Part shown: piece after piece, positions 2,390-28,410 of the stretch
Numbering within the stretch: the first letter of the stretch is position 1
Layout: every line of letters starts with the position of its first letter
Assembly (NCBI GenBank): GCA_964520445.1
Contig: CAZFNU010000001.1
Location: forward strand, 1 to 30,698
Source: an uncultured Candidatus Saccharibacteria bacterium
GTDB lineage: Bacteria > Patescibacteriota > Minisyncoccia > UBA6257 > JAKLIH01
Length of the DNA: 30,698 nucleotides
Reading direction: 5' to 3'
Translations under genes and position numbers: made by a program
Notes under the pieces: model-generated
Database searches by the model: none
The model's input: the letters and a program-made list of their open reading frames with translations, nothing else
What the model was told of the DNA's origin: nothing

Positions 2390-2466
2390 TTGACAAATTA
2401 AGGTAAATTTGCTAAAATGGTCATAATTAAACTAAGAAATGACCAATTTTGGTAATAAATGGTCAT
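2390..2466 (+). promoter_or_regulatory. sigma70 promoter with three overlapping/downstream TGGTCAT boxes
   Basis: TTGACA 2390-2395, 17 nt, TAAAAT 2413-2418. TGGTCAT at 2418, its reverse complement at 2439, TGGTCAT again at 2460. Confidence 0.7.
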
Positions 2467-2488
2467 TTTGTGAAAAATAATCACAAAA

Positions 2489-3763
2489 ATGGATAATCAC
2501 TTAAGAATAATATTAGAAAGACAAAAATTAGAAAAAGAAAGGATTTTATCTTTCAAGGTCATAGATCGTCAAGAAAACCAAGAAGCACCAAAATATATAG
2601 ATAATGAACTAATAAAAGTAATTACTGGCCCTAGGCGTTGTGGTAAGTCAGTTTTTTCTTTTCAAGTTTTAAAAAATAGAGGATATAGTTTTGCTTATGC
2701 AAATTTTGAAGACGAAGCTCTTATTTCCGCTATTGATAATAATTATGATAAATTTACAGACGAATTAAACTTTGTTTATGGAAAAACAGACTATTTTGTT
2801 TTTGATGAAATACAAAATTTAGATAAATGAGAAATGTATTTAAATAAATTACAAAGAAGAGGATATAAAATAATAGTTACAGGATCTAACGCAAAATTAT
2901 TGAGTGGAGAATTAGCAACTTCTTTAACAGGAAGACATATTTCTATAGATTTATTTCCATTTAGCTTTCAAGAGTTCCTAGACTATAAATATCAAGAAAA
3001 AAAACCGGTAGAAACCCAATTGCCATACGAACTAGAATATTATTTAAAACAAGGTGGCTTCCCAGAAACTTTAAAACCAGAAATAGATTCATACTCTTAT
3101 CTAAATGGGCTTGTCCAAACAACGATACTAAAGGATGTTTTGTTTAGGCACGGACATAGTATTCAGAAAGGTAAAAGAATTGAGCTTTTAGCTAATTACC
3201 TAATTAATCATTGTTGTCAAGAGTTTAGCTATCGTAAATTAGCAATACCATTAGCCATCAAAAGCCACAATACTGCTGAAAAATATTTAGGATATCTACA
3301 AGAAACATTTTTATTCTTTACTTTAGGAAAATATTCGTTTAAATATTCCGAACATTTATCTTCTGATAAGAAAGTATATGTAATAGACAATGGGTTATTG
3401 ACTGCCAGAAATTTATTTAATTCTCCGAATTATGGAATATATTTCGAGAATTTAATTTTCCTAGAATTATTACGCAGAAACTATAGACCAAATTATGAAT
3501 TATTTTATTATAAAACTAAGGGTAATAAGGAGGTTGATTTTGTCTTAAAAGATCCTAATTCTAAGATTAACCAATTGATACAAGTTTGTTATGATATCCA
3601 GAATACCGAGACAGAAAAAAGAGAAGTTTCCGCCTTATTAAAAGCCAGCCAAGAATTACAGTGTAATAATTTGTTAATTATAACGAAAGACGTCGAAAAG
3701 GAAGAAATTAAAAATGAAACAATAATTAAATACATTCCTGCTTGGAAGTATCTTTTGAGTTAA
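2489..3763 (+). CDS. AAA+ ATPase, COG1373 type (AAA_14 + DUF4143), 424 aa
   Basis: Walker A GPRRCGKS, Walker B FVFDEIQ, TGSNA and GGFPE motifs, C-terminal EVDF. One TGA (2828-2830) sits at the conserved DEIQxxxxW position and joins the two track ORFs. Confidence 0.92.
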
Positions 3764-5295: not shown

Positions 5296-5826
5296 ATGAC
5301 TAAAGACAACTTTTCTAAAATTTATGATACGCATATGACAGAAATTTACCGTTTCTTCTATTTGCGTACTAATCAAAGAGAGCATTCTGAAGAACTAGCT
5401 TCAGAGGCCTTTTTTAAGTTTTGACAACATAATAAGAATAAGACCGAGAATTATATCAAAAATCCCCGGGCCTTTCTTTATCGTATTTCCAGAAACCTCT
5501 TAATAGATCACTTTAGAAAAAATAATCAAAACAAACAAGATATTTCTATTGAAGAATTCAATGATTCCCCAAATTTACCTCGTACCCTTGTTGATGACTC
5601 TTTCCGACAATCAGTAGAGCTAGAAGAAAAACAAAATAAGATAAAGAAAGCCTTACAAAAAATCAACCCAACCTATGCCGATATTATTATCTATTATTTT
5701 ATTGAAGGATTAGATAGCCATGAAATTGCTTCTATCTTAGAAAAAACAGAAAGTAATATCAGAGTTTTAATTCATAGATCTCTGGAATCATTAAAAAAAG
5801 AAATAGGAGAAAATATTGATTTATAA
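5296..5826 (+). CDS. ECF RNA polymerase sigma factor (176 aa, table 4)
   Basis: Region 2 YRFFYLRT..SEELASEAFFKF-W(TGA 5422)..AFLYRISRNLLIDHFRK; region 4 EGLDSHEIASILEKTESNIRVLIHRSL. Missed entirely by the ORF track. Confidence 0.9.
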
Positions 5827-6091: not shown

Positions 6092-6147
6092 CCTATATAT
6101 AGTAAGATAGATAATGAAATTTTTATATATCCTAAATTTATTTAATT

Positions 6148-6723
6148 ATGCAAAAAGAACAACCTAATTCTAATAAAGATAAAACTCCCAAGAAACTATC
6201 TAAGGAGAAAGAGGCTTTAAAATTAAAATTTATAGAATATCTGAAGCAATATAAAGAGGAGATTTATAAAATAGCCTATTACTATGCTAAAAATAAAGAC
6301 GATGCAGAGGATTTAGCGCAGGAAGCCTGTACAAAAGCCTATTGCTATTTCCATACCTTCAAAGAAGGTTCTAGTTTTAAAGCTTGGATGTTTAAAATCA
6401 TAAACAACACATTTAAAGGGATATGAACCAAAAAACAGAAACACGGCACCTCAGAATATATCAAGGGTATAAAGGAAGACCTATATAAATTCCAAGACAA
6501 AGATCGGCTAGAGGACCAATTAATAAGTATTGATATTAATCTTTTAAAGAAAAAAATAACTACATTACCCAAAGAATTTAAAGAAGTCATAACCCTGTAT
6601 GACATTCAAGGATTATCCTATGAAGAAATTGCCCAAAAAATAAATATAAATATAGGTACAGTAAGATCTCGACTACACCGAGCTAGAGCAATTTTGAAAG
6701 AACAGATAGGAAATGACATATAG
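6148..6723 (+). CDS. ECF RNA polymerase sigma factor (191 aa, table 4)
   Basis: DAEDLAQEACTKAY, SFKAWMFKIINNTF, TGA 6424 read through, then region 4 QGLSYEEIAQKININIGTVRSRLHRAR; TAG 6721-6723. Confidence 0.92.
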
Positions 6724-6725
6724 AG

Positions 6726-6765
6726 CTGTAACAAATTCTCCTAATATACGTCTACATTTATAGCT
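6726..6765 (+). repeat. 40-bp direct repeat copy 1, containing an ECF-type promoter TGTAAC-N16-CGTC
   Basis: 37/40 identical to 7309-7348. The AAC-N16-CGTC spacing matches SigM/W/X-like ECF promoters. Confidence 0.85.
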
Positions 6766-6793
6766 TAAAATATATTATTTTAACATATCAATC

Positions 6794-7075
6794 ATGAAAA
6801 AAACAAAAAAAGTAATTAAAAAACAAACAAAAAAGATTTTGGAATATACTGCTGTATTTGAAAGGGAAGAAGACGGAAAATATACAGTTCGTTTTCCTAG
6901 CTTACCAGGGTGCTTTACTTATGGGAATAACTTAAAACATGCTCATGAAATGGCCAAGGAAGTTTTGGAATTATGATTAGAAGTACTAGAAGAGAACAAA
7001 AAGCCAATTCCGATTGAACGTAAGAATGTTATTGCCTGTATTAGTAAACTAAAAGTTTCTTTAGTCAAAAACTAA
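6794..7075 (+). CDS. hicB: HicB-family antitoxin (short form, 93 aa)
   Basis: YTAVFEREEDGKYTVRFPSLPGCFTYG..HAHEMAKEVLEL-W(TGA 6974)-LE..PIP; no C-terminal DNA-binding domain seen. Confidence 0.9.
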
Positions 7076-7084
7076 GATTATTTA

Positions 7085-7303
7085 ATGCCTTCTTTAAATT
7101 ATACTCAAATTACAAAAACACTAAAGAAACATGGTTTTATACTTATTCGGCAGCGAGGAAGTCATTTTATATGGCATAACTTTGAAAAAGAGATTACCGT
7201 CCCCGTTCCTTTTCATGGGAAATCAGAACCCATTGCTATAGGCACGGTTATGGATATAATTCGTCAATCAAGTATTCCCAAGGAGAAATTTTTTAAAAGA
7301 TAA
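7085..7303 (+). CDS. hicA: HicA-family mRNA interferase toxin
   Basis: LKKHGF..RQRGSHFI..ITVPVPFH..IAIGTVMDII, the canonical HicA pattern. Confidence 0.92.
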   Translation: MPSLNYTQITKTLKKHGFILIRQRGSHFIWHNFEKEITVPVPFHGKSEPIAIGTVMDIIRQSSIPKEKFFKR

Positions 7304-7308
7304 TTTAA

Positions 7309-7348
7309 CTGTAACAAATTCTCCTAATACACGTCTACATACATAGCT
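7309..7348 (+). repeat. 40-bp direct repeat copy 2, ECF-type promoter
   Basis: ctgtaacaaattctcctaatacacgtctacatacatagct, upstream of the anti-sigma-like gene. Confidence 0.85.
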
Positions 7349-7436
7349 ACAAATAAACATGAACTTTGCCTAGCAAAGCCAAAAACAAACAAAAAATATA
7401 AAAAAGCTAGTAAATACTAGCTAAAATTAAAGAAAC

Positions 7437-8336
7437 ATGACAAATTTTACTCACGAAAATCAAAATAGCGAGCAAAATAAGGGCCAAAACGACGTTTTAG
7501 CTACTCTTTTATCGTTTCGTGAAGTAAAACCTAGAGTTTTATGACAAGAAGCTAATAAAGGAAGATTATTAGAAAGAATTAGATTAGAACAACATACTGA
7601 AAGAAAAGCTAATTATAAGCCTAGTTATTTTATTAAACAAATGTCTTGATTTGCCAAACCAGTAGCTATTTCTTTAGCTAGTTTTGGCTTACTTAGTGGT
7701 ACTGTTATAGGAACTCAAGCAATTTCTCCTTTAAGTGTTTTTTACCCAGCTAAGATCTTGGTGGCTAATACCTATTATAGAGTATTACCTAAAGAAAAAC
7801 AGATAGAATATAGACTATCTCTAGCTAATGAGAAATTATCTGCTTTAAAAACACTTCAAAATGTAACAAAACCATCTAAAACTCGTCAGATATCTTACCT
7901 CACTAATTCTTTAACCTCAGATCTCTATTTCTCAGCTAATAATATGAAACAAATTAAGGATTTAAAGAAATTAGTCACAATCGCTCCTAAAATAGAAGCA
8001 GCTACTAAAAAATGAGCTAATGAAACCAGTACTAATCCTAAAATGGATGAAATTGTTAAAAATGTAAAACAAGAAATTCTAGCTATTATAATCGATACCG
8101 AAGATAAAGCTGATAATTGTCCTTCTTATTTATCTCAAAGAATAACAGAATTATCAGATCCTAGTAAGTTAGCTATCTATAACCCAGAGAACAAAGTAGC
8201 AGTAATAAATTTACTTACTGATGCTAAAAAAGCAATGTTATCCAATGATTGTCTGAAATCCTTACAACTTCTAGATCAGGTGGCAGAGTATCAACTTCAA
8301 TTGTTAATTAACCCTACTGGTTTGGAAACAAAGTAG
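7437..8336 (+). CDS. Single-TM protein, DUF5667-like, putative anti-sigma factor (299 aa, table 4)
   Basis: Three TGA (7542, 7647, 8013) join the fragments. N-terminal VKPRVL-W..KGRLLERI, one TM, then ISPLSVFYPAK resembling the LPGDxLYPxK motif, then a helical C-domain. Position downstream of an ECF sigma fits an anti-sigma role (inference). Confidence 0.7.
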
Positions 8337-8445
8337 TCAGGGATAATTAAAACCCCATTATCCTTAAACATTAAATTAAAAGTTTAAGGAAGGTCGGCTT
8401 ATGGATCGCATAAATAAACAAAAACAAATAAGTTTAAAATTTAAA

Positions 8446-10434
8446 ATGATGAATAAGAAATTCTTAACTCTATTCGTTGCTGCTACTTTCGTAGTATCAT
8501 CTTTTGCACCTTTTGCAAAAGCTGCAACAATAGACGAGCAAATTGCTGCTTTACTAGCACAAATTGCTGCCTTGCAAGGCCAAGTCGCAACATCAACAGG
8601 TACAGCAACAGGCACAACCTGCTTCTCAAATAATTTGAGCTATGGTATGACCCATGCTGATGTTAAGTTATTACAAGAAAAATTAGGTGTTTCCAACACT
8701 GGCTATTTTGGTCCTTTGACCTTAGCTGCTGTTAAAACATATCAAGCAAACAATGCTATCTCTCCAGTTGCTGGTTACGTAGGTCCTTTGACCCGCGCTT
8801 CCTTAAATGCTAAATATTGCACTACATCTACATCTACATCAACCGTTCCAGGTTGTGCTTCTGGTGCAACATATAGCGCAACAACTGGCGCTCTTTGTAC
8901 TACAGCTACATCAACCGTTCCAGGTTGTGCTGCTGGTGCATTATTCAGTGCTACAACAGGTGCAAGCTGTACAACAGGTACAACTTCAGCTAGTGGTACT
9001 GCAACAGAAGGTACATTAGTAAATACAACTTCTGCAACTTTCGTTGAGACTTCTTTAAAGAAAGGAGACGTCAACAAAGCTATCTTAGCTACAACAGTTG
9101 AAGCTAGAAATTCCGACATTACTCTTAAAAGAGCTGATGTTGAATTAGCCGCTACTTCAATCCAACCATGAAAGACATTCTCATCTTTTGGTTTGTATGC
9201 TAACGGAGTTTTAGTTAAAGAAATTTCAGCCGCAAAAGAGAACTTTATTGAAACCACATTCGTAACAAAATACGTTTTGAGATTCGATAATATCTCTATA
9301 GTTGTTGCTAAAGGACAAAAAGTTGATTTAGTAGTTAAAACAACCGTTTTAGCAAATCCAGAAAATACAGCTATTACAACTTTCAAGTTCTTAGCTAGCG
9401 CTATCCGTGGAGTTGATGGAGCAGGTATTGATCAATACACCTCTACAGAAATTACCAATACAATCTCTGGTGATGCCGTAGCCGCTTCTTCTACAGGTAC
9501 ATTAGTATGATCTCTTAATACTGCATCTCCAAAAACAGGTTTTGTTACTGGTAGTGCAACCGTTGTTTCTTCAGACAAGACATTAGCAATTTATGATATC
9601 AAAGCTGAAAACAGAGACGTTACTATCAAAACATTACTTGTTACCATGACTGATGCCGATACAATTGTTAGCGCTGTTAAATTATATGATGGTGCTACAT
9701 TGTTAGCTAGCGTTGCTGGTGCAAATGGTGATGTTACCTTTGATAATTTAGCTATTCTAATTGCTAAAGATACAACCAAAACATTAACTGTTAAGGTTGA
9801 TTTGAAGCCATTAGCTGCTGAGGGTAAGTTAATAGCTGCTGTAGTTACTGGTAGTGCTGCTAAAGTTTCTGCCTTTGACTCAACAGATGCTATTTTAGGC
9901 GCAAAATCATGTGGTGGAGGAGAATGTATTACAGGTACAGCTACAGGTAAAACATTAACAGCTTACACAAAAGCTCCATTGTTAACCTTTGTATCCTCAT
10001 CATTCACTAAGACAGTACAAGCTGGTCAAGCTGACCAAGGTGATGCTATAATCGTATTCGATGTCACCGCCGTTGGTGGAGATATCTTCATCAATAAAGC
10101 TGCTACCGCACTTGGTACTATCACAGTTGATGACGGAGTAGCCGCTACAGATACCTTTGCTGGTGGTCTAGGTACTTATACCTTTACATCTACAGCTGAG
10201 GCTGCTTCTGCAGACGTATATGTTGTTAGATCTGGTCAAACAGCTAGATTTACAATTTCAGGTCATGTAATTAATAAAGCTACAACAGGCTATATGCACA
10301 TGGCTATGGATAAGTTAATCTGAGGTACCGCTGTTGGAACCCCAACAACCTATAACTTATTAGGTATTTCAGCCACAGTTAATTATGATTTATCTAACTT
10401 TATAACAACAGACATTTCCTTAACACACGTCTAG
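8446..10434 (+). CDS. Secreted surface/S-layer-like protein with peptidoglycan-binding domain (662 aa, table 4)
   Basis: Signal peptide, QIAALLAQIAALQ helix, PG_binding_1-like DVKLLQEKL..GYFGPLTLAAVKTYQ..GYVGPLTRASLN, Cys repeats, then Ala/Thr-rich beta domains. TGA at 9169, 9508, 10321; TAG 10432. Confidence 0.88.
8836..8973 (+). repeat. Intragenic tandem repeat, 69-nt period (STVPGCxxGAxxSATTGAxC x2)
   Basis: acatcaaccgttccaggttgtgct recurs 69 nt apart; each unit has a Cys pair. Confidence 0.8.
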
Positions 10435-17991: not shown

Positions 17992-18366
17992 TTAAAATCC
18001 AGAATGGTATTTAATATATTCCTTTATTCTTCCCATGTTTTCAATAGTTTGTTCACTTTTAAAATACAATTCAATAAATTCCACGGTATTGTTTTTCTCA
18101 GCAAAGGCATAAATAATCCTAATACCACTATGTGCCCCCTTATTTTTTAAGGCCTTGCAGGCAAATTTTTTAACTACAAAAAAGCAAATACCTTCACAAG
18201 GGAAGCCAGATATTTTAAAAATACCATTATTATCAATTTTATTGATATGAAAATTCTCTATAGCTTGTCTTTTAGCCACTTCTAAATCAGCTTCCAGGGT
18301 TCGGAATTTTTTTGAAAGTTGTTTTAGGTCTTTTAAAAAGCCGTCTGCATATAGATAGTTAATCAT
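17992..18366 (-). CDS. RelE/HigB-like toxin (124 aa)
   Basis: Likely start is ATG 18366, overlapping the antitoxin stop. F.KDLKQL.KKFRTLEADL..VKKFACKALKNKGAHSGIRIIYAF..EFIELYFK is a RelE-superfamily-like pattern. Confidence 0.7.
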   Translation of the reverse strand: MINYLYADGFLKDLKQLSKKFRTLEADLEVAKRQAIENFHINKIDNNGIFKISGFPCEGICFFVVKKFACKALKNKGAHSGIRIIYAFAEKNNTVEFIELYFKSEQTIENMGRIKEYIKYHSGF

Positions 18367-19144
18367 TGTTTTTATCCTGCTTATATATTCGTACCGATGT
18401 ATTACTATCCCTGTAAAATACTCCTTCATAATCTAATTGTTCACTCTGTTTAGCAGAAATCCAAGGAACATCCTTATGGGATAGTTCCGAGAGATCGCTA
18501 GCTGTCATATCTGATAATCTTTGTAGTTCTCAATCAATATGTTCTTGTTCTTGTCCGTTCAAAATACTAAGGTCTATTTTAGTTTCCGGATTAATCAGAT
18601 ATTTAGTTTGGGGGTACTCATAAAAACTACTTTTGATCTTTTCTATTTTTTTATCTTTGATTAGTTCATTTACTACATATTCAAATAAAGGAGGAGTAGG
18701 CCCATGATGGTTTTTAAAATATATTAAACCCATTAACTGCTGTTCATATTTTTCATAGTAATCAAAGTCAATAAAGTATAGTAATTTATATATTACGGTC
18801 ATTCCTACGTTTGGTTTCCCTCCTACCTTTTTTAAGATATAGAGTAAGATTTCTTTGAATTTTTCAACCTTTTCTTCCGGAACGCTAATTCTAGTATCTT
18901 CAGTTTTGTCTTCTTTTTTTTCTTTCTTTATTTCTTTAATACTAACCCCCTCTTTTTCTTGTAACAGATCAACAAGAAAGATATTAAAAAGATTAGCCAA
19001 CTTTTCAGCTTCAGCTATAGTAATATCGTGTTTTCCCATTTCTAATTGAATATATGTAGGCCTGGATATTCCTATCTTTGAGGCCACATATTCTTGGGAT
19101 CAGTTTTGTTTTTTTCTTAATTCTTGAATAAATTTGTAAAGCAT
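18359..19144 (-). CDS. XRE-HTH + Panacea (DUF4065/GepA-like) antitoxin (261 aa, table 4)
   Basis: LRKKQN-W(TGA 19102)-SQEYVASKIGISRPTY HTH; GMTVIYKLLYFIDF..HHGPTP; EHID-W(TGA 18532)-EL..LSELSHKDVPW..LDYEGVFYR; TAA 18359-18361. Confidence 0.9.
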
Positions 19145-26874: not shown

Positions 26875-26946
26875 TCCGCGGTAGTTGAGTGGTACAACGC
26901 CTCCCTGTTAAGGAGGATTTCGCAGGTTCGAGTCCTGCCCGCGGAG
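26875..26946 (+). tRNA. tRNA-Asn(GTT), probable integration site
   Basis: TCCGCGG/CCGCGGA acceptor, CCTCC-ctGTTaa-GGAGG anticodon arm, GCAGG-TTCGAGT-CCTGC T-arm. Confidence 0.95.
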
Positions 26947-28410
26947 CATTGTAGGACAGTTGTTAAATTTGAGCATAGTATTAAACGGTTCTCGTACCGT
27001 GAATACTAGCTCTTTTTCTTTTAACTGAAGGTTCTGAAGTACGAAACTTAGAAGTTGCTTTTTCTCTTCCACTTCAGAACTTTCAAATATTTCTCTAGCT
27101 CTCTTAGCTAAATTAAGCACCAAACTAGCGGTTATATAGAAATTTTCATCTGCATTGGTGTGTCTCGACATTTCTTCTTGTATATCTGCTTGTTTATTTT
27201 TTCATTCTTTTAATTTAGCATTAAATACATCAGGAGGGATCTGTCCGTCAGCTAATAAATTAAAAGCATTGCTTATTCTGGTATCTATTTGGCTATACTC
27301 CTTTTGTAAATTGTCTAAAGCTAATTGATGAAATTTATTTTTAGATTCATTAGTACTCTTTAAGTTTTCTGTTATTTTATTTATTTGATCATCCGTGAAT
27401 TTCATATTATCTAAAACATTATATATCGGAGTCAAAAGATCTTCTTCTTTACAGTACAATACTTTCTTATGAAGTCTCCTATAATTTGTACAATGATAAT
27501 AATGATGACCCTTAGAAGTTTCAGGAGTTATCATACAGCCACATTCTGAACAGGTGATCATTCCTCTGAAAATATATGGTTTGGCTGCATAATGAAAGGG
27601 TTTCTTGTGATAACCTAATGATACGGCTTGGCATCTATTAAACAAATCTTTACTAATTAAGGGCTCATATTTATGAGGGTATAATTGATCTTTAATTTTC
27701 ATAACTCCATAATAAAACGGGTTATTAATTATTTTGTGTATCATACTCTTGGGTAAGGGATTATGTACTTCGGTATTTCCAGTTAGTCCCATAGTTTCCA
27801 TTTCTTTTGTAATATCTAATAATGAATAATTCCCCGTAGCATACATTTCAAATATTCTAATGATATATGATGCTCTTTCTGGATCTGGAATTACATCTTT
27901 ATCTTCGTTTTTTGTGCTTATATAGCCAATAGGGGACTTTCCAATTCATTCTCCATTTTTAATTTTATTTTCATAAGCCCTTTTAACACTATCACTAATA
28001 GAATCTGAATAATATTTAGCCAAGCTTACACCTATAGTAAACCTAAATAAATCAGTAGCAGGTGAGTCTTTAGTTAATATTATATTATCTGAAGGGAAAT
28101 GAAGCTCTATTTTGCCCTCTTTCCTTAATTCTTCCAATGTAACTAATTCTTTTGTAAAATTTCTTATCAATCTATCAATTTTATCGCAACATAAGGAAAG
28201 AGGCTCTTTAGAAGTTTTTAATGTTTCCACAACTTTGCTAAATTCTTCCCGTTCTGTTTTGAAAGCACTTTCATCGAAACTTAACTCTTTTGCAATAACG
28301 AGATTCTTTTCTATGGCATATTTTCTTAATCTTAATACTTGAGCTGGCAAAGAATTTCCCGCTTCTTTTTGTTCTTCAGTTGAAACTCTTGCCAATAGTA
28401 TAGCTTTCAT
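26908..28410 (-). CDS. Large serine recombinase (resolvase + recombinase + Zn-ribbon; 500 aa, table 4)
   Basis: MKAILLARVSTEEQ..SLPAQ catalytic Ser motif; KIDRLIRN; NGE-W(TGA 27948)-IGKSPIGY; NNPFYYG; CSECGC..YYHC Zn ribbon; second TGA 27204; ends LRGQDSNLRNPP* antisense to tRNA-Asn. Confidence 0.93.

Follow-up and report, generated by a model that had tools for sequence, protein, structure and literature searches.

What is a toxin-antitoxin (TA) pair doing between two copies of one short element? The question is raised by the DNA analysed here, 30,698 nt of contig CAZFNU010000001.1 from an uncultured Candidatus Saccharibacteria bacterium (this whole stretch is called the window). In it, the genes hicB and hicA are enclosed by a direct repeat, with the gene of an extracytoplasmic function (ECF) sigma factor upstream and p299, the gene of a membrane protein, downstream. 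The answer favoured here, with a probability of about 0.6, is that the repeat consists of two copies of a lineage-specific ECF-type promoter: the second (P2) would serve an envelope operon beginning with p299, and the first (P1) would be a duplicate that gives hicBA the same promoter. It is built on direct observations, namely the repeat, the identities of the genes, the conservation of a bipartite motif, a variable slot in front of p299 and the replacement of an allele in that slot.

The repeat and the genes around it

The repeat finder returned a direct repeat of 47 nt with 89% identity, whose 26-nt core agrees at 25/26 positions; direct reading gives 37/40 over a stretch of 40 nt. The copies lie 583 nt apart, start to start, and hold only hicB and hicA between them. 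Copy 1 sets in 2-3 nt past the TAG stop (6721-6723) of ECF sigma 2. A first-pass annotation, made from the letters alone, had described this arrangement: a 40-bp repeat bracketing exactly the two genes, with TGTAAC-N16-CGTC in each copy (6727, 7310) and copy 1 just past the sigma stop. All of it is borne out. The features are the following (L numbers denote related loci, X numbers metagenome runs).

6148-6723, + strand: ECF sigma 2, 191 amino acids (aa), TGA=Trp codon 93, recognised by Pfam and NCBIfam
6726-6772, + strand: repeat copy 1 (P1), predicted -35 TGTAAC at 6727-6732 and -10 CGTC at 6749-6752, 41 nt 5' of the hicB ATG
6794-7075, + strand: hicB, 93 aa, PF15919 (HicB_lk_antitox) at 1.6e-11 over profile positions 1-59 of 123, TGA=Trp codon 61
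7085-7303, + strand: hicA, 72 aa, PF07927 (HicA_toxin) at 5.6e-16, start 9 nt past the hicB stop
7309-7355, + strand: repeat copy 2 (P2 of p299), predicted -35 at 7310-7315 and -10 at 7332-7335, beginning 6 nt past the hicA stop
7356-7436, + strand: conserved 5' untranslated region (5'UTR) of p299, from an alignment of the window with L018, L014, L024 and L022
7437-8336, + strand: p299, 299 aa, single-pass membrane protein, orthologues 33-82% identical
7862-7887, + strand: third TGTAAC-N16-CGTC, within the p299 reading frame, ~540 nt 5' of the surface-protein gene
8401-10434, + strand: surface-protein gene, Pfam PG_binding_1, orthologues in L010, L012, L014, L018 and others

The window contains three matches to TGTAAC-N16-CGTC, all on the + strand (6727, 7310, 7862). 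Shuffled sequences give an expectation of 0.02 per window, and 0/100 shuffles reach three matches, which rules out a chance repeat. Independent Logan contigs of the sludge run X1 (6115-7037 and 7036-7529) reproduce the junction from sigma through copy 1 to hicB, as well as that from hicA through copy 2 to p299, with 0 differences, which rules out an assembly artefact.

Several familiar origins of such a structure were rejected. A transposon or insertion sequence with target-site duplication does not fit a segment that holds only hicB and hicA and has no terminal inverted repeats; moreover, a 47-nt repeat that genomes lacking the insert also preserve as a functional motif is no target-site duplication. 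An integron gene cassette was discarded as well: the repeat search found no attC-like inverted repeat in or around the element, and no integrase is present at the locus.

The reading frames were called with TGA as a sense codon. In-frame TGA codons, which the first-pass annotation did not mention, occur throughout the window (e.g., 6424-6426, 6974-6976 and 7542-7544) and break the table-11 open reading frames (ORFs) of the region, so that sigma 2 and hicB seem truncated. Where orthologues are aligned, TGA stands opposite TGG six times and opposite GGN never, and the remaining aligned residues are hydrophobic or aromatic. TGA is thus read as Trp (table 4), and a reading as Gly (table 25) is ruled out by the same count of 0 against 6.

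The HicB of the window is short. Its alignment with the 148-aa E. coli HicB (6u0i) covers residues 5-69 only, which is the N-domain, and the profile match is likewise confined to the N-terminal part. No helix-turn-helix or ribbon-helix-helix match was found with Pfam, and the C-terminal DNA-binding domain is absent from the 6u0i alignment, as the first-pass annotation had stated. Membership of the HicAB family stands, since a short HicB is a known variant and all homologues of this subfamily measure 83-95 aa. The HicB of the window and all its close relatives open with a Lys-rich tail of ~15 residues (MKKTKKVIKKQTKK; 6794-6838 in the window), placed before the HicB fold. HicA carries G-S-H at residues 24-26, aligned with the GSH of PDB 9svk, and also matches 1whz. 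The antitoxin-first order had been read correctly from the sequence. An exact look-up of HicA gave no match, and PADLOC returned none for HicA or HicB.

Downstream, p299 is predicted to have a cytoplasmic N-terminus of ~70 aa, one transmembrane helix and a helical extracytoplasmic domain. It may be an anti-sigma or sensor protein, a putative assignment to judge from its topology. The first-pass annotation had taken it for the anti-sigma factor, with feedback kept; the topology would suit this, but no anti-sigma domain was matched in Pfam or NCBIfam and the only hit, to DUF5667 (E=0.023), lies below the cutoff. The AlphaFold2 (AF2) model, from an alignment of eight sequences, has a mean confidence score (pLDDT) of 49.9, too poor for use. 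The surface-protein gene is the conserved partner of p299 downstream. Upstream of it, several relatives carry a conserved three-hairpin element of ~110 nt (L010 1596-1730, L007 1396-1515, L011 7950-8075, L012 7358-7485), with a degree of covariation and no match in Rfam; in the window it is reduced, at 8337-8445, to one hairpin plus GGTCGGCTTATGG. Because this reduced element occupies 8337-8445, the true start of the surface protein is probably the ATG at 8446, followed by a signal peptide, and not 8401.

The element and the slot in related loci

Related loci were collected through HicB homologues, through p299 in genome and metagenome collections and through homologues of the p299 protein. 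For the metagenome scan, peptide patterns were used with W masked, since the lineage encodes Trp as TGA. The loci come from metagenome-assembled genomes labelled Patescibacteria, Saccharibacteria or Paceibacterota, one of them being contig JAKLIH010000006.1, and the runs that hold the sequence are from sludge, wastewater, bioreactors, groundwater and soil. The first Patescibacteriota with UGA reassigned to Trp, the family JAKLIH01 of the Minisyncoccia, were reported in a 2026 preprint (doi 10.64898/2026.05.24.727570). It is to this UGA=Trp group that the window most likely belongs.

Fifteen non-internal instances of the element, from about ten lineages, could be compared. Positions 1-10 (TGTAACAAAT) and 23-27 (CGTCT) vary hardly or not at all and the spacer at 11-22 is free, giving the consensus TGTAACAAAT-N12-CGTCTAyAT. 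Matches to TGWAAC-N16-CGTC in the fetched loci lie on the gene strand without exception (22/22), and none occurs in the unrelated sigma loci L002-L005. The element is placed 22-110 nt 5' of a start codon. In every relative whose contig extends upstream of p299 (L009, L010, L011, L012, L013, L014/L015, L018, L020, L023 and L024), a copy stands 36-110 nt before the p299 ATG; the contig of L022 ends within the element. Other genes are headed by it too: a HATPase/DUF4325 pair in L011, the leader of the surface protein in L008, and in L018 a block containing an RNA ligase and one with AlbA_2/HATPase_c_4. The pattern AAC-N16/17-CGT is the textbook ECF promoter, known from SigW, SigX and SigM of Bacillus subtilis. 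Being bipartite, with a free spacer, on the gene strand and upstream of p299 or of cargo genes, the element is typical of an ECF-type promoter, and the promoter class proposed by the first-pass annotation is supported.

The two copies in the window are not equivalent. The orthologues of copy 2 in L018, L014, L024 and L022 are trailed by a long conserved 5'UTR, and the likeness of copy 1 to copy 2 extends for only ~20 nt past the -10. As the conserved 5'UTR trails copy 2 alone, copy 2 is taken as the original p299 promoter and copy 1 as a partial duplicate. The 5'UTR runs from TACATACAyAGCTACAAATAAACATG through a hairpin, an A-rich stretch and an invariant GCTAGT-N4-ACTAGC hairpin to the ATG. 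In the first hairpin (7362-7380), the letters of the stem differ among lineages with pairing kept by compensatory changes; the second (7405-7422) ends 14 nt 5' of the p299 ATG. In L014, both promoter copies keep an intact -35 and -10 amid diverged flanks (32/42 identical), which points to selection on both.

The third motif, inside p299, has orthologues of the form TG(T/A)AAC-N16-CGTC in L018 (4202), L014 (2156), L009 (985) and L020 (1179). It is kept in several relatives despite amino-acid changes across the -35, and it may serve the surface-protein gene as an internal promoter or be the product of coding constraint.

The order promoter copy, hicB, hicA, promoter copy, p299 recurs in L014, L015 and L021, where the gene upstream encodes a 159-aa membrane protein and not a sigma factor. 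Compared with the window, these loci are 64% identical in p299, ~60-61% in HicB and 44% in HicA, and a contig of run X8 matches the hicA-promoter-p299 junction of L014 at 86%. The insertion of hicBA is thus neither private to the window nor recent, judging from a layout common to lineages whose p299 is only 64% identical. The closest relative, L018 (p299 82% identical), has a more complex array. It opens with a copy (170), a 78-aa gene, the RNA ligase, a 105-aa gene and a fused hicB'-hicA' remnant (1479-1793); a second copy (1800) precedes AlbA_2/HATPase_c_4 fragments, and a third (3651) precedes p299. An intact HATPase_c_4-type gene lies directly 5' of the p299 promoter in L024. The slot can also be vacant: L020 has a single copy with no hicBA upstream, and L009 (221-410) and L023 (406-540) have two tandem copies 107 nt apart before p299, with no gene between.

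In a distant clade (clade C; p299 ~33% identical), hicBA is found 3' of p299, within the same operon, where it is frequently repeated in tandem and degraded. In L011 there are two cassettes, with a ~590-nt period (6775-7861); the first hicB is truncated in L007 (590-1304) and L016 (498-1273); in L012, hicA is frameshifted in an A-run, and the cassette (6769-7265) is flanked by a 14-17-nt direct repeat (AATAAAATTGCTTT). L010 is without any hicBA. The identities of HicB and HicA disagree with the p299 tree: HicB of the window is 60% identical to that of L014 and 61-68% to alleles of the distant clade, compared with 64% and 33%, respectively, for p299. The conserved parts of hicBA are the 5' end of hicB and the 3' end of hicA, which would offer homology for allele exchange and would explain the hicB'-hicA' deletion fusions of L007 and L018.

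Exchange at the slot is visible among close strains. In run X3, a strain whose sigma 2 and p299 are ~97-99% identical to those of the window yields contigs that break exactly at the repeat, one of 1127 nt ending at 6753 and one of 846 nt starting at 7311. A third contig, of 593 nt, has the repeat at both ends; it starts at 6728, follows the window up to 6863 (hicB codon 23) and is then <80% similar to it. Its interior is 81% identical to hicB of L014 and reads on as LNGWLKVLKG. It is therefore another hicB allele, and the content of the cassette has been replaced between nearly identical strains. The 34-nt repeat node has a depth of 13, which fits two copies per genome given flank depths of 6.8 and 7.3; the insert has 4.9. 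In run X5, two 151-nt pieces of hicBA are identical to the window and the pieces of sigma 1 and p299 are ~87-89% identical. This suggests horizontal movement of hicBA; a strain mixture would also be possible. An empty allele in near-identical strains, i.e., a contig joining 6753 to 7336, was found in none of the runs X1-X8, which is a weak test, as in Logan contigs rare variants are missing and exact repeats are merged. Among the relatives, a p299 promoter without hicBA upstream does occur, in L020, L009/L023 and L010, which agrees with the first-pass annotation.

Upstream of sigma 2, two more genes belong here.

5296-5826, + strand: ECF sigma 1, 176 aa, TGA=Trp codon 43, Pfam Sigma70_r2/r4_2/ECF, TIGR02937
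5891-6091, + strand: ORF for a 66-aa membrane protein, from the re-called set

Both sigma proteins hold only the sigma-2 and sigma-4 domains (Sigma70_r2, r4_2), and they score 85-96 bits with TIGR02937 against a cutoff of 42.9. Their nearest solved structures are SigW, SigH and SigE, in the case of sigma 2 SigH of Mycobacterium tuberculosis and SigW of B. subtilis. By domain content, both are genuine ECF sigmas. An orthologue of sigma 1 (50% identical) was found near p299 only in L012, ~1 kb upstream, and sigma 1 is the candidate cognate sigma of the promoter. The best homologues of sigma 2 are found at 44-49% identity in an ftsZ-sepF context; as a source of syntenic empty sites they were uninformative for both reasons. 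The first-pass annotation had pictured a TA pair inserted, with duplication of the promoter, into a sigma/anti-sigma operon. An extra copy 1 and an ancestral copy 2 agree with the duplication, but the conserved sigma/anti-sigma operon did not materialise in the relatives.

Proposed control and its rivals

The model that follows from two promoter copies is simple. Copy 2 (7310-7335) would be the ancestral promoter of a conserved envelope operon, p299 followed by the peptidoglycan-binding surface protein. Copy 1 (6727-6752) would carry the promoter and roughly the first 13-20 nt of its transcript, and would drive hicB-hicA, one ECF sigma reading both. As HicB consists of the N-domain only, without a DNA-binding domain, hicBA probably cannot autoregulate; its transcription would be set by the activity of the ECF sigma and by read-through from the upstream sigma genes, and it would be induced together with the envelope operon. 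No terminator-like site was found on the + strand between 5130 and 8600, so read-through from the sigma genes and transcripts from P1 may continue into P2, p299 and the surface-protein gene. Once sigma activity or transcription in the host ceases, labile HicB would be lost and the HicA mRNA interferase freed, in line with the general behaviour of type II TA systems. The slot 5' of the p299 promoter is variable: relatives either leave it vacant or fill it with hicBA, an RNA-ligase block or an AlbA_2/HATPase_c_4 gene, the blocks being bounded by promoter copies of their own, and hicBA alleles are exchanged between strains at this place. Promoter activity, the choice of a cognate sigma and the physiological role are inferences.

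Several observations weigh against this model. Most ECF sigmas autoregulate, yet neither sigma gene is preceded by TG[TA]AAC-N15-17-CGT, be it in the window or in L012; none of the relatives recovered has sigma 2 next to p299. In closer relatives, conservation extends ~12 nt beyond the -10 (TACATnnATAGC), which a promoter alone does not need. Coding constraint (RQISYL) accounts for part of the internal third motif, which L022 and L024 have lost. In the window, the spacers of copies 1 and 2 are 15/16 identical, so for this genome alone copy 1 could be a recent and perhaps idle duplicate. A run search found no RNA-seq runs holding the locus.

The similarity of the copies leads to the alternative that survives best, although it is considered unlikely: copy 2 would be a real promoter and copy 1 a by-product of the arrival of hicBA by duplication, gene conversion or recombination, with hicBA transcribed by read-through and under no specific ECF control. 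Copy 1 is nearer to copy 2 (37/42) and to the copy at 3651 of L018 (36/42) than to the upstream copy of L014 (29/42), which suggests recent copying or gene conversion in the lineage of the window. The stop of sigma 2 lies just 3 nt 5' of copy 1 with no terminator between, and the hicBA remnant of L018 has no promoter copy directly upstream. An idle copy is, however, hard to reconcile with the upstream copy of L014/L015, whose perfect -35 and -10 amid decayed flanks look as if under selection. Promoter copies also stand ahead of other cargo blocks in L018 and L011, and in clade C hicBA lies within an operon driven by the element, so that hicBA is generally associated with this promoter.

Rather improbable is a second alternative, in which the 42-47-nt element would serve mainly, or also, as a site of recombination or docking for integron-like swapping of cassettes 5' of p299, its likeness to a promoter being secondary. 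The cargo blocks of L018, L014 and the window all end 6-9 nt before a copy; the copies have sharp boundaries and are conserved past the -10. Allele replacement between the same repeats in X3, the identical hicBA beside diverged neighbours in X5 and the tandem copies of L009/L023 with nothing between would fit such a site as well. Yet the element lacks an attC-like structure, and no recombinase adjoins the array, the nearest being a serine recombinase 20 kb off, beside a tRNA. The left breakpoint in X3 falls inside hicB at ~6863 and not at the repeat, as expected of ordinary homologous recombination, and the cassettes of clade C, 3' of p299, are not flanked by the element. Finally, two conserved blocks around a free spacer are the footprint of a sigma factor and not of a recombinase.

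It is very improbable that the element is the operator of another DNA-binding regulator or a housekeeping-sigma promoter. In favour of this reading, little is known of the housekeeping promoters of Patescibacteria, the sigma genes lack the motif on their 5' side, and a sigma-70-type scan of the region, including upstream of hicB, gave 15 matches against 17 expected, i.e., chance level, so that no housekeeping promoter was identified. Against it, three copies in 30.7 kb, at this locus only, are too few for a housekeeping promoter, the fit to TTGACA-N17-TATAAT is poor (candidate hexamers 19-20 nt apart by direct reading), and AAC...CGT with 16-nt spacing is the signature of ECF promoters.

The promoter model can be taken one step further, to a claim that is itself quite unlikely. 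In the UGA=Trp Patescibacteria (JAKLIH01 and relatives), the promoter element might at the same time anchor an array of cassettes delimited by promoters, in which accessory and defence modules would enter a fixed slot by the conserved envelope operon, multiply, be exchanged and decay there, each gaining the same ECF promoter. The modules seen in the arrays are hicBA, AlbA_2/HATPase_c_4, the RNA ligase and the HATPase+DUF4325 pair. If this were true, a single envelope-stress sigma would preside over a mobile defence repertoire, functionally an integron without integrase that is wired to a stress sigma.

Elsewhere in the window, the following features were recorded; the Rfam scan returned tRNAs only.

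2459-3763: AAA_14/DUF4143 ATPase, PADLOC candidate defence family PDC-S01 at 2.4e-102
17992-18429, - strand: 145-aa ORF, overlapping the next gene and with it a probable second TA pair
18359-19144, - strand: HTH_3 + SocA_Panacea antitoxin-type protein
26875-26947: tRNA-Asn
26908-28410, - strand: large serine recombinase gene overlapping the tRNA-Asn, probably the edge of an integrated element

Known systems and biological meaning

Type II TA pairs are normally self-contained and autoregulated. The canonical HicAB of E. coli K-12 shares with the pair described here the mRNA-interferase fold of HicA with its G-S-H, the N-terminal toxin-binding domain of HicB and the two-gene operon. It differs in having the toxin gene first and a 148-aa HicB with a C-terminal DNA-binding domain, by which the E. 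coli protein represses its own promoter; the HicB of the window, on the contrary, has 93 aa, a Lys-rich N-terminal tail and no such domain, and its gene comes first. In E. coli, hicB may also be genetically linked to the essentiality of sigma E, on which the literature search found no paper. Nor did the literature searches yield a paper connecting HicAB with an ECF promoter.

The nearest precedent is mazEF of Staphylococcus aureus and Listeria, a type II TA system without autoregulation that is linked physically and transcriptionally to rsbUVW-sigB, with read-through downstream (PMC3920265; PMC5308263). The likeness lies in the missing autoregulation and in the tie to the stress operon of an alternative sigma. 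In that case, however, the factor is sigma B (group 3), and mazEF has a promoter of its own, modulated by SarA and sigma B, that is not a copy of the operon's promoter. In the window, hicBA lies between two copies of one ECF-type promoter, 3' of a sigma gene and 5' of a membrane protein gene.

With the ECF regulons of B. subtilis (SigW, SigX, SigM) and M. tuberculosis (SigH, SigE), the locus shares the -35 ending in AAC, the 16-nt spacer and the -10 CGTC, as well as a small, envelope-centred set of genes and sigma proteins nearest to SigH and SigW. Unlike in those regulons, there is no promoter copy 5' of the sigma gene, hence no visible autoregulation, and an anti-sigma domain was not recognised; the promoter has several local copies, placed ahead of accessory or defence-type cargo. 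Chromosomal integron arrays with TA cassettes resemble the locus in their co-oriented small accessory blocks, repeated element, adjoining fixed gene and strain-variable content. They differ from it by an integrase, attC-type inverted repeats and a single promoter, Pc, instead of one promoter per block. Short-HicB hicBA, the ECF promoter, TA systems linked to a sigma operon and the UGA=Trp code of the lineage are known already; what is unusual here is that one promoter has been multiplied locally around exchangeable cargo.

Across the clade, hicBA is consistently embedded in an ECF-type transcription unit, either by a promoter copy of its own or inside the operon. Should this control be confirmed, the toxin would answer to an envelope-stress signal and not to conditional cooperativity. 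To our knowledge, almost nothing is known of transcriptional control in such Patescibacteria; for these uncultured, genome-reduced bacteria with UGA=Trp, the locus gives a testable promoter consensus and a small regulon. Its small hypervariable slot with TA and defence-type cargo would also be useful for following strain-level dynamics in wastewater communities.

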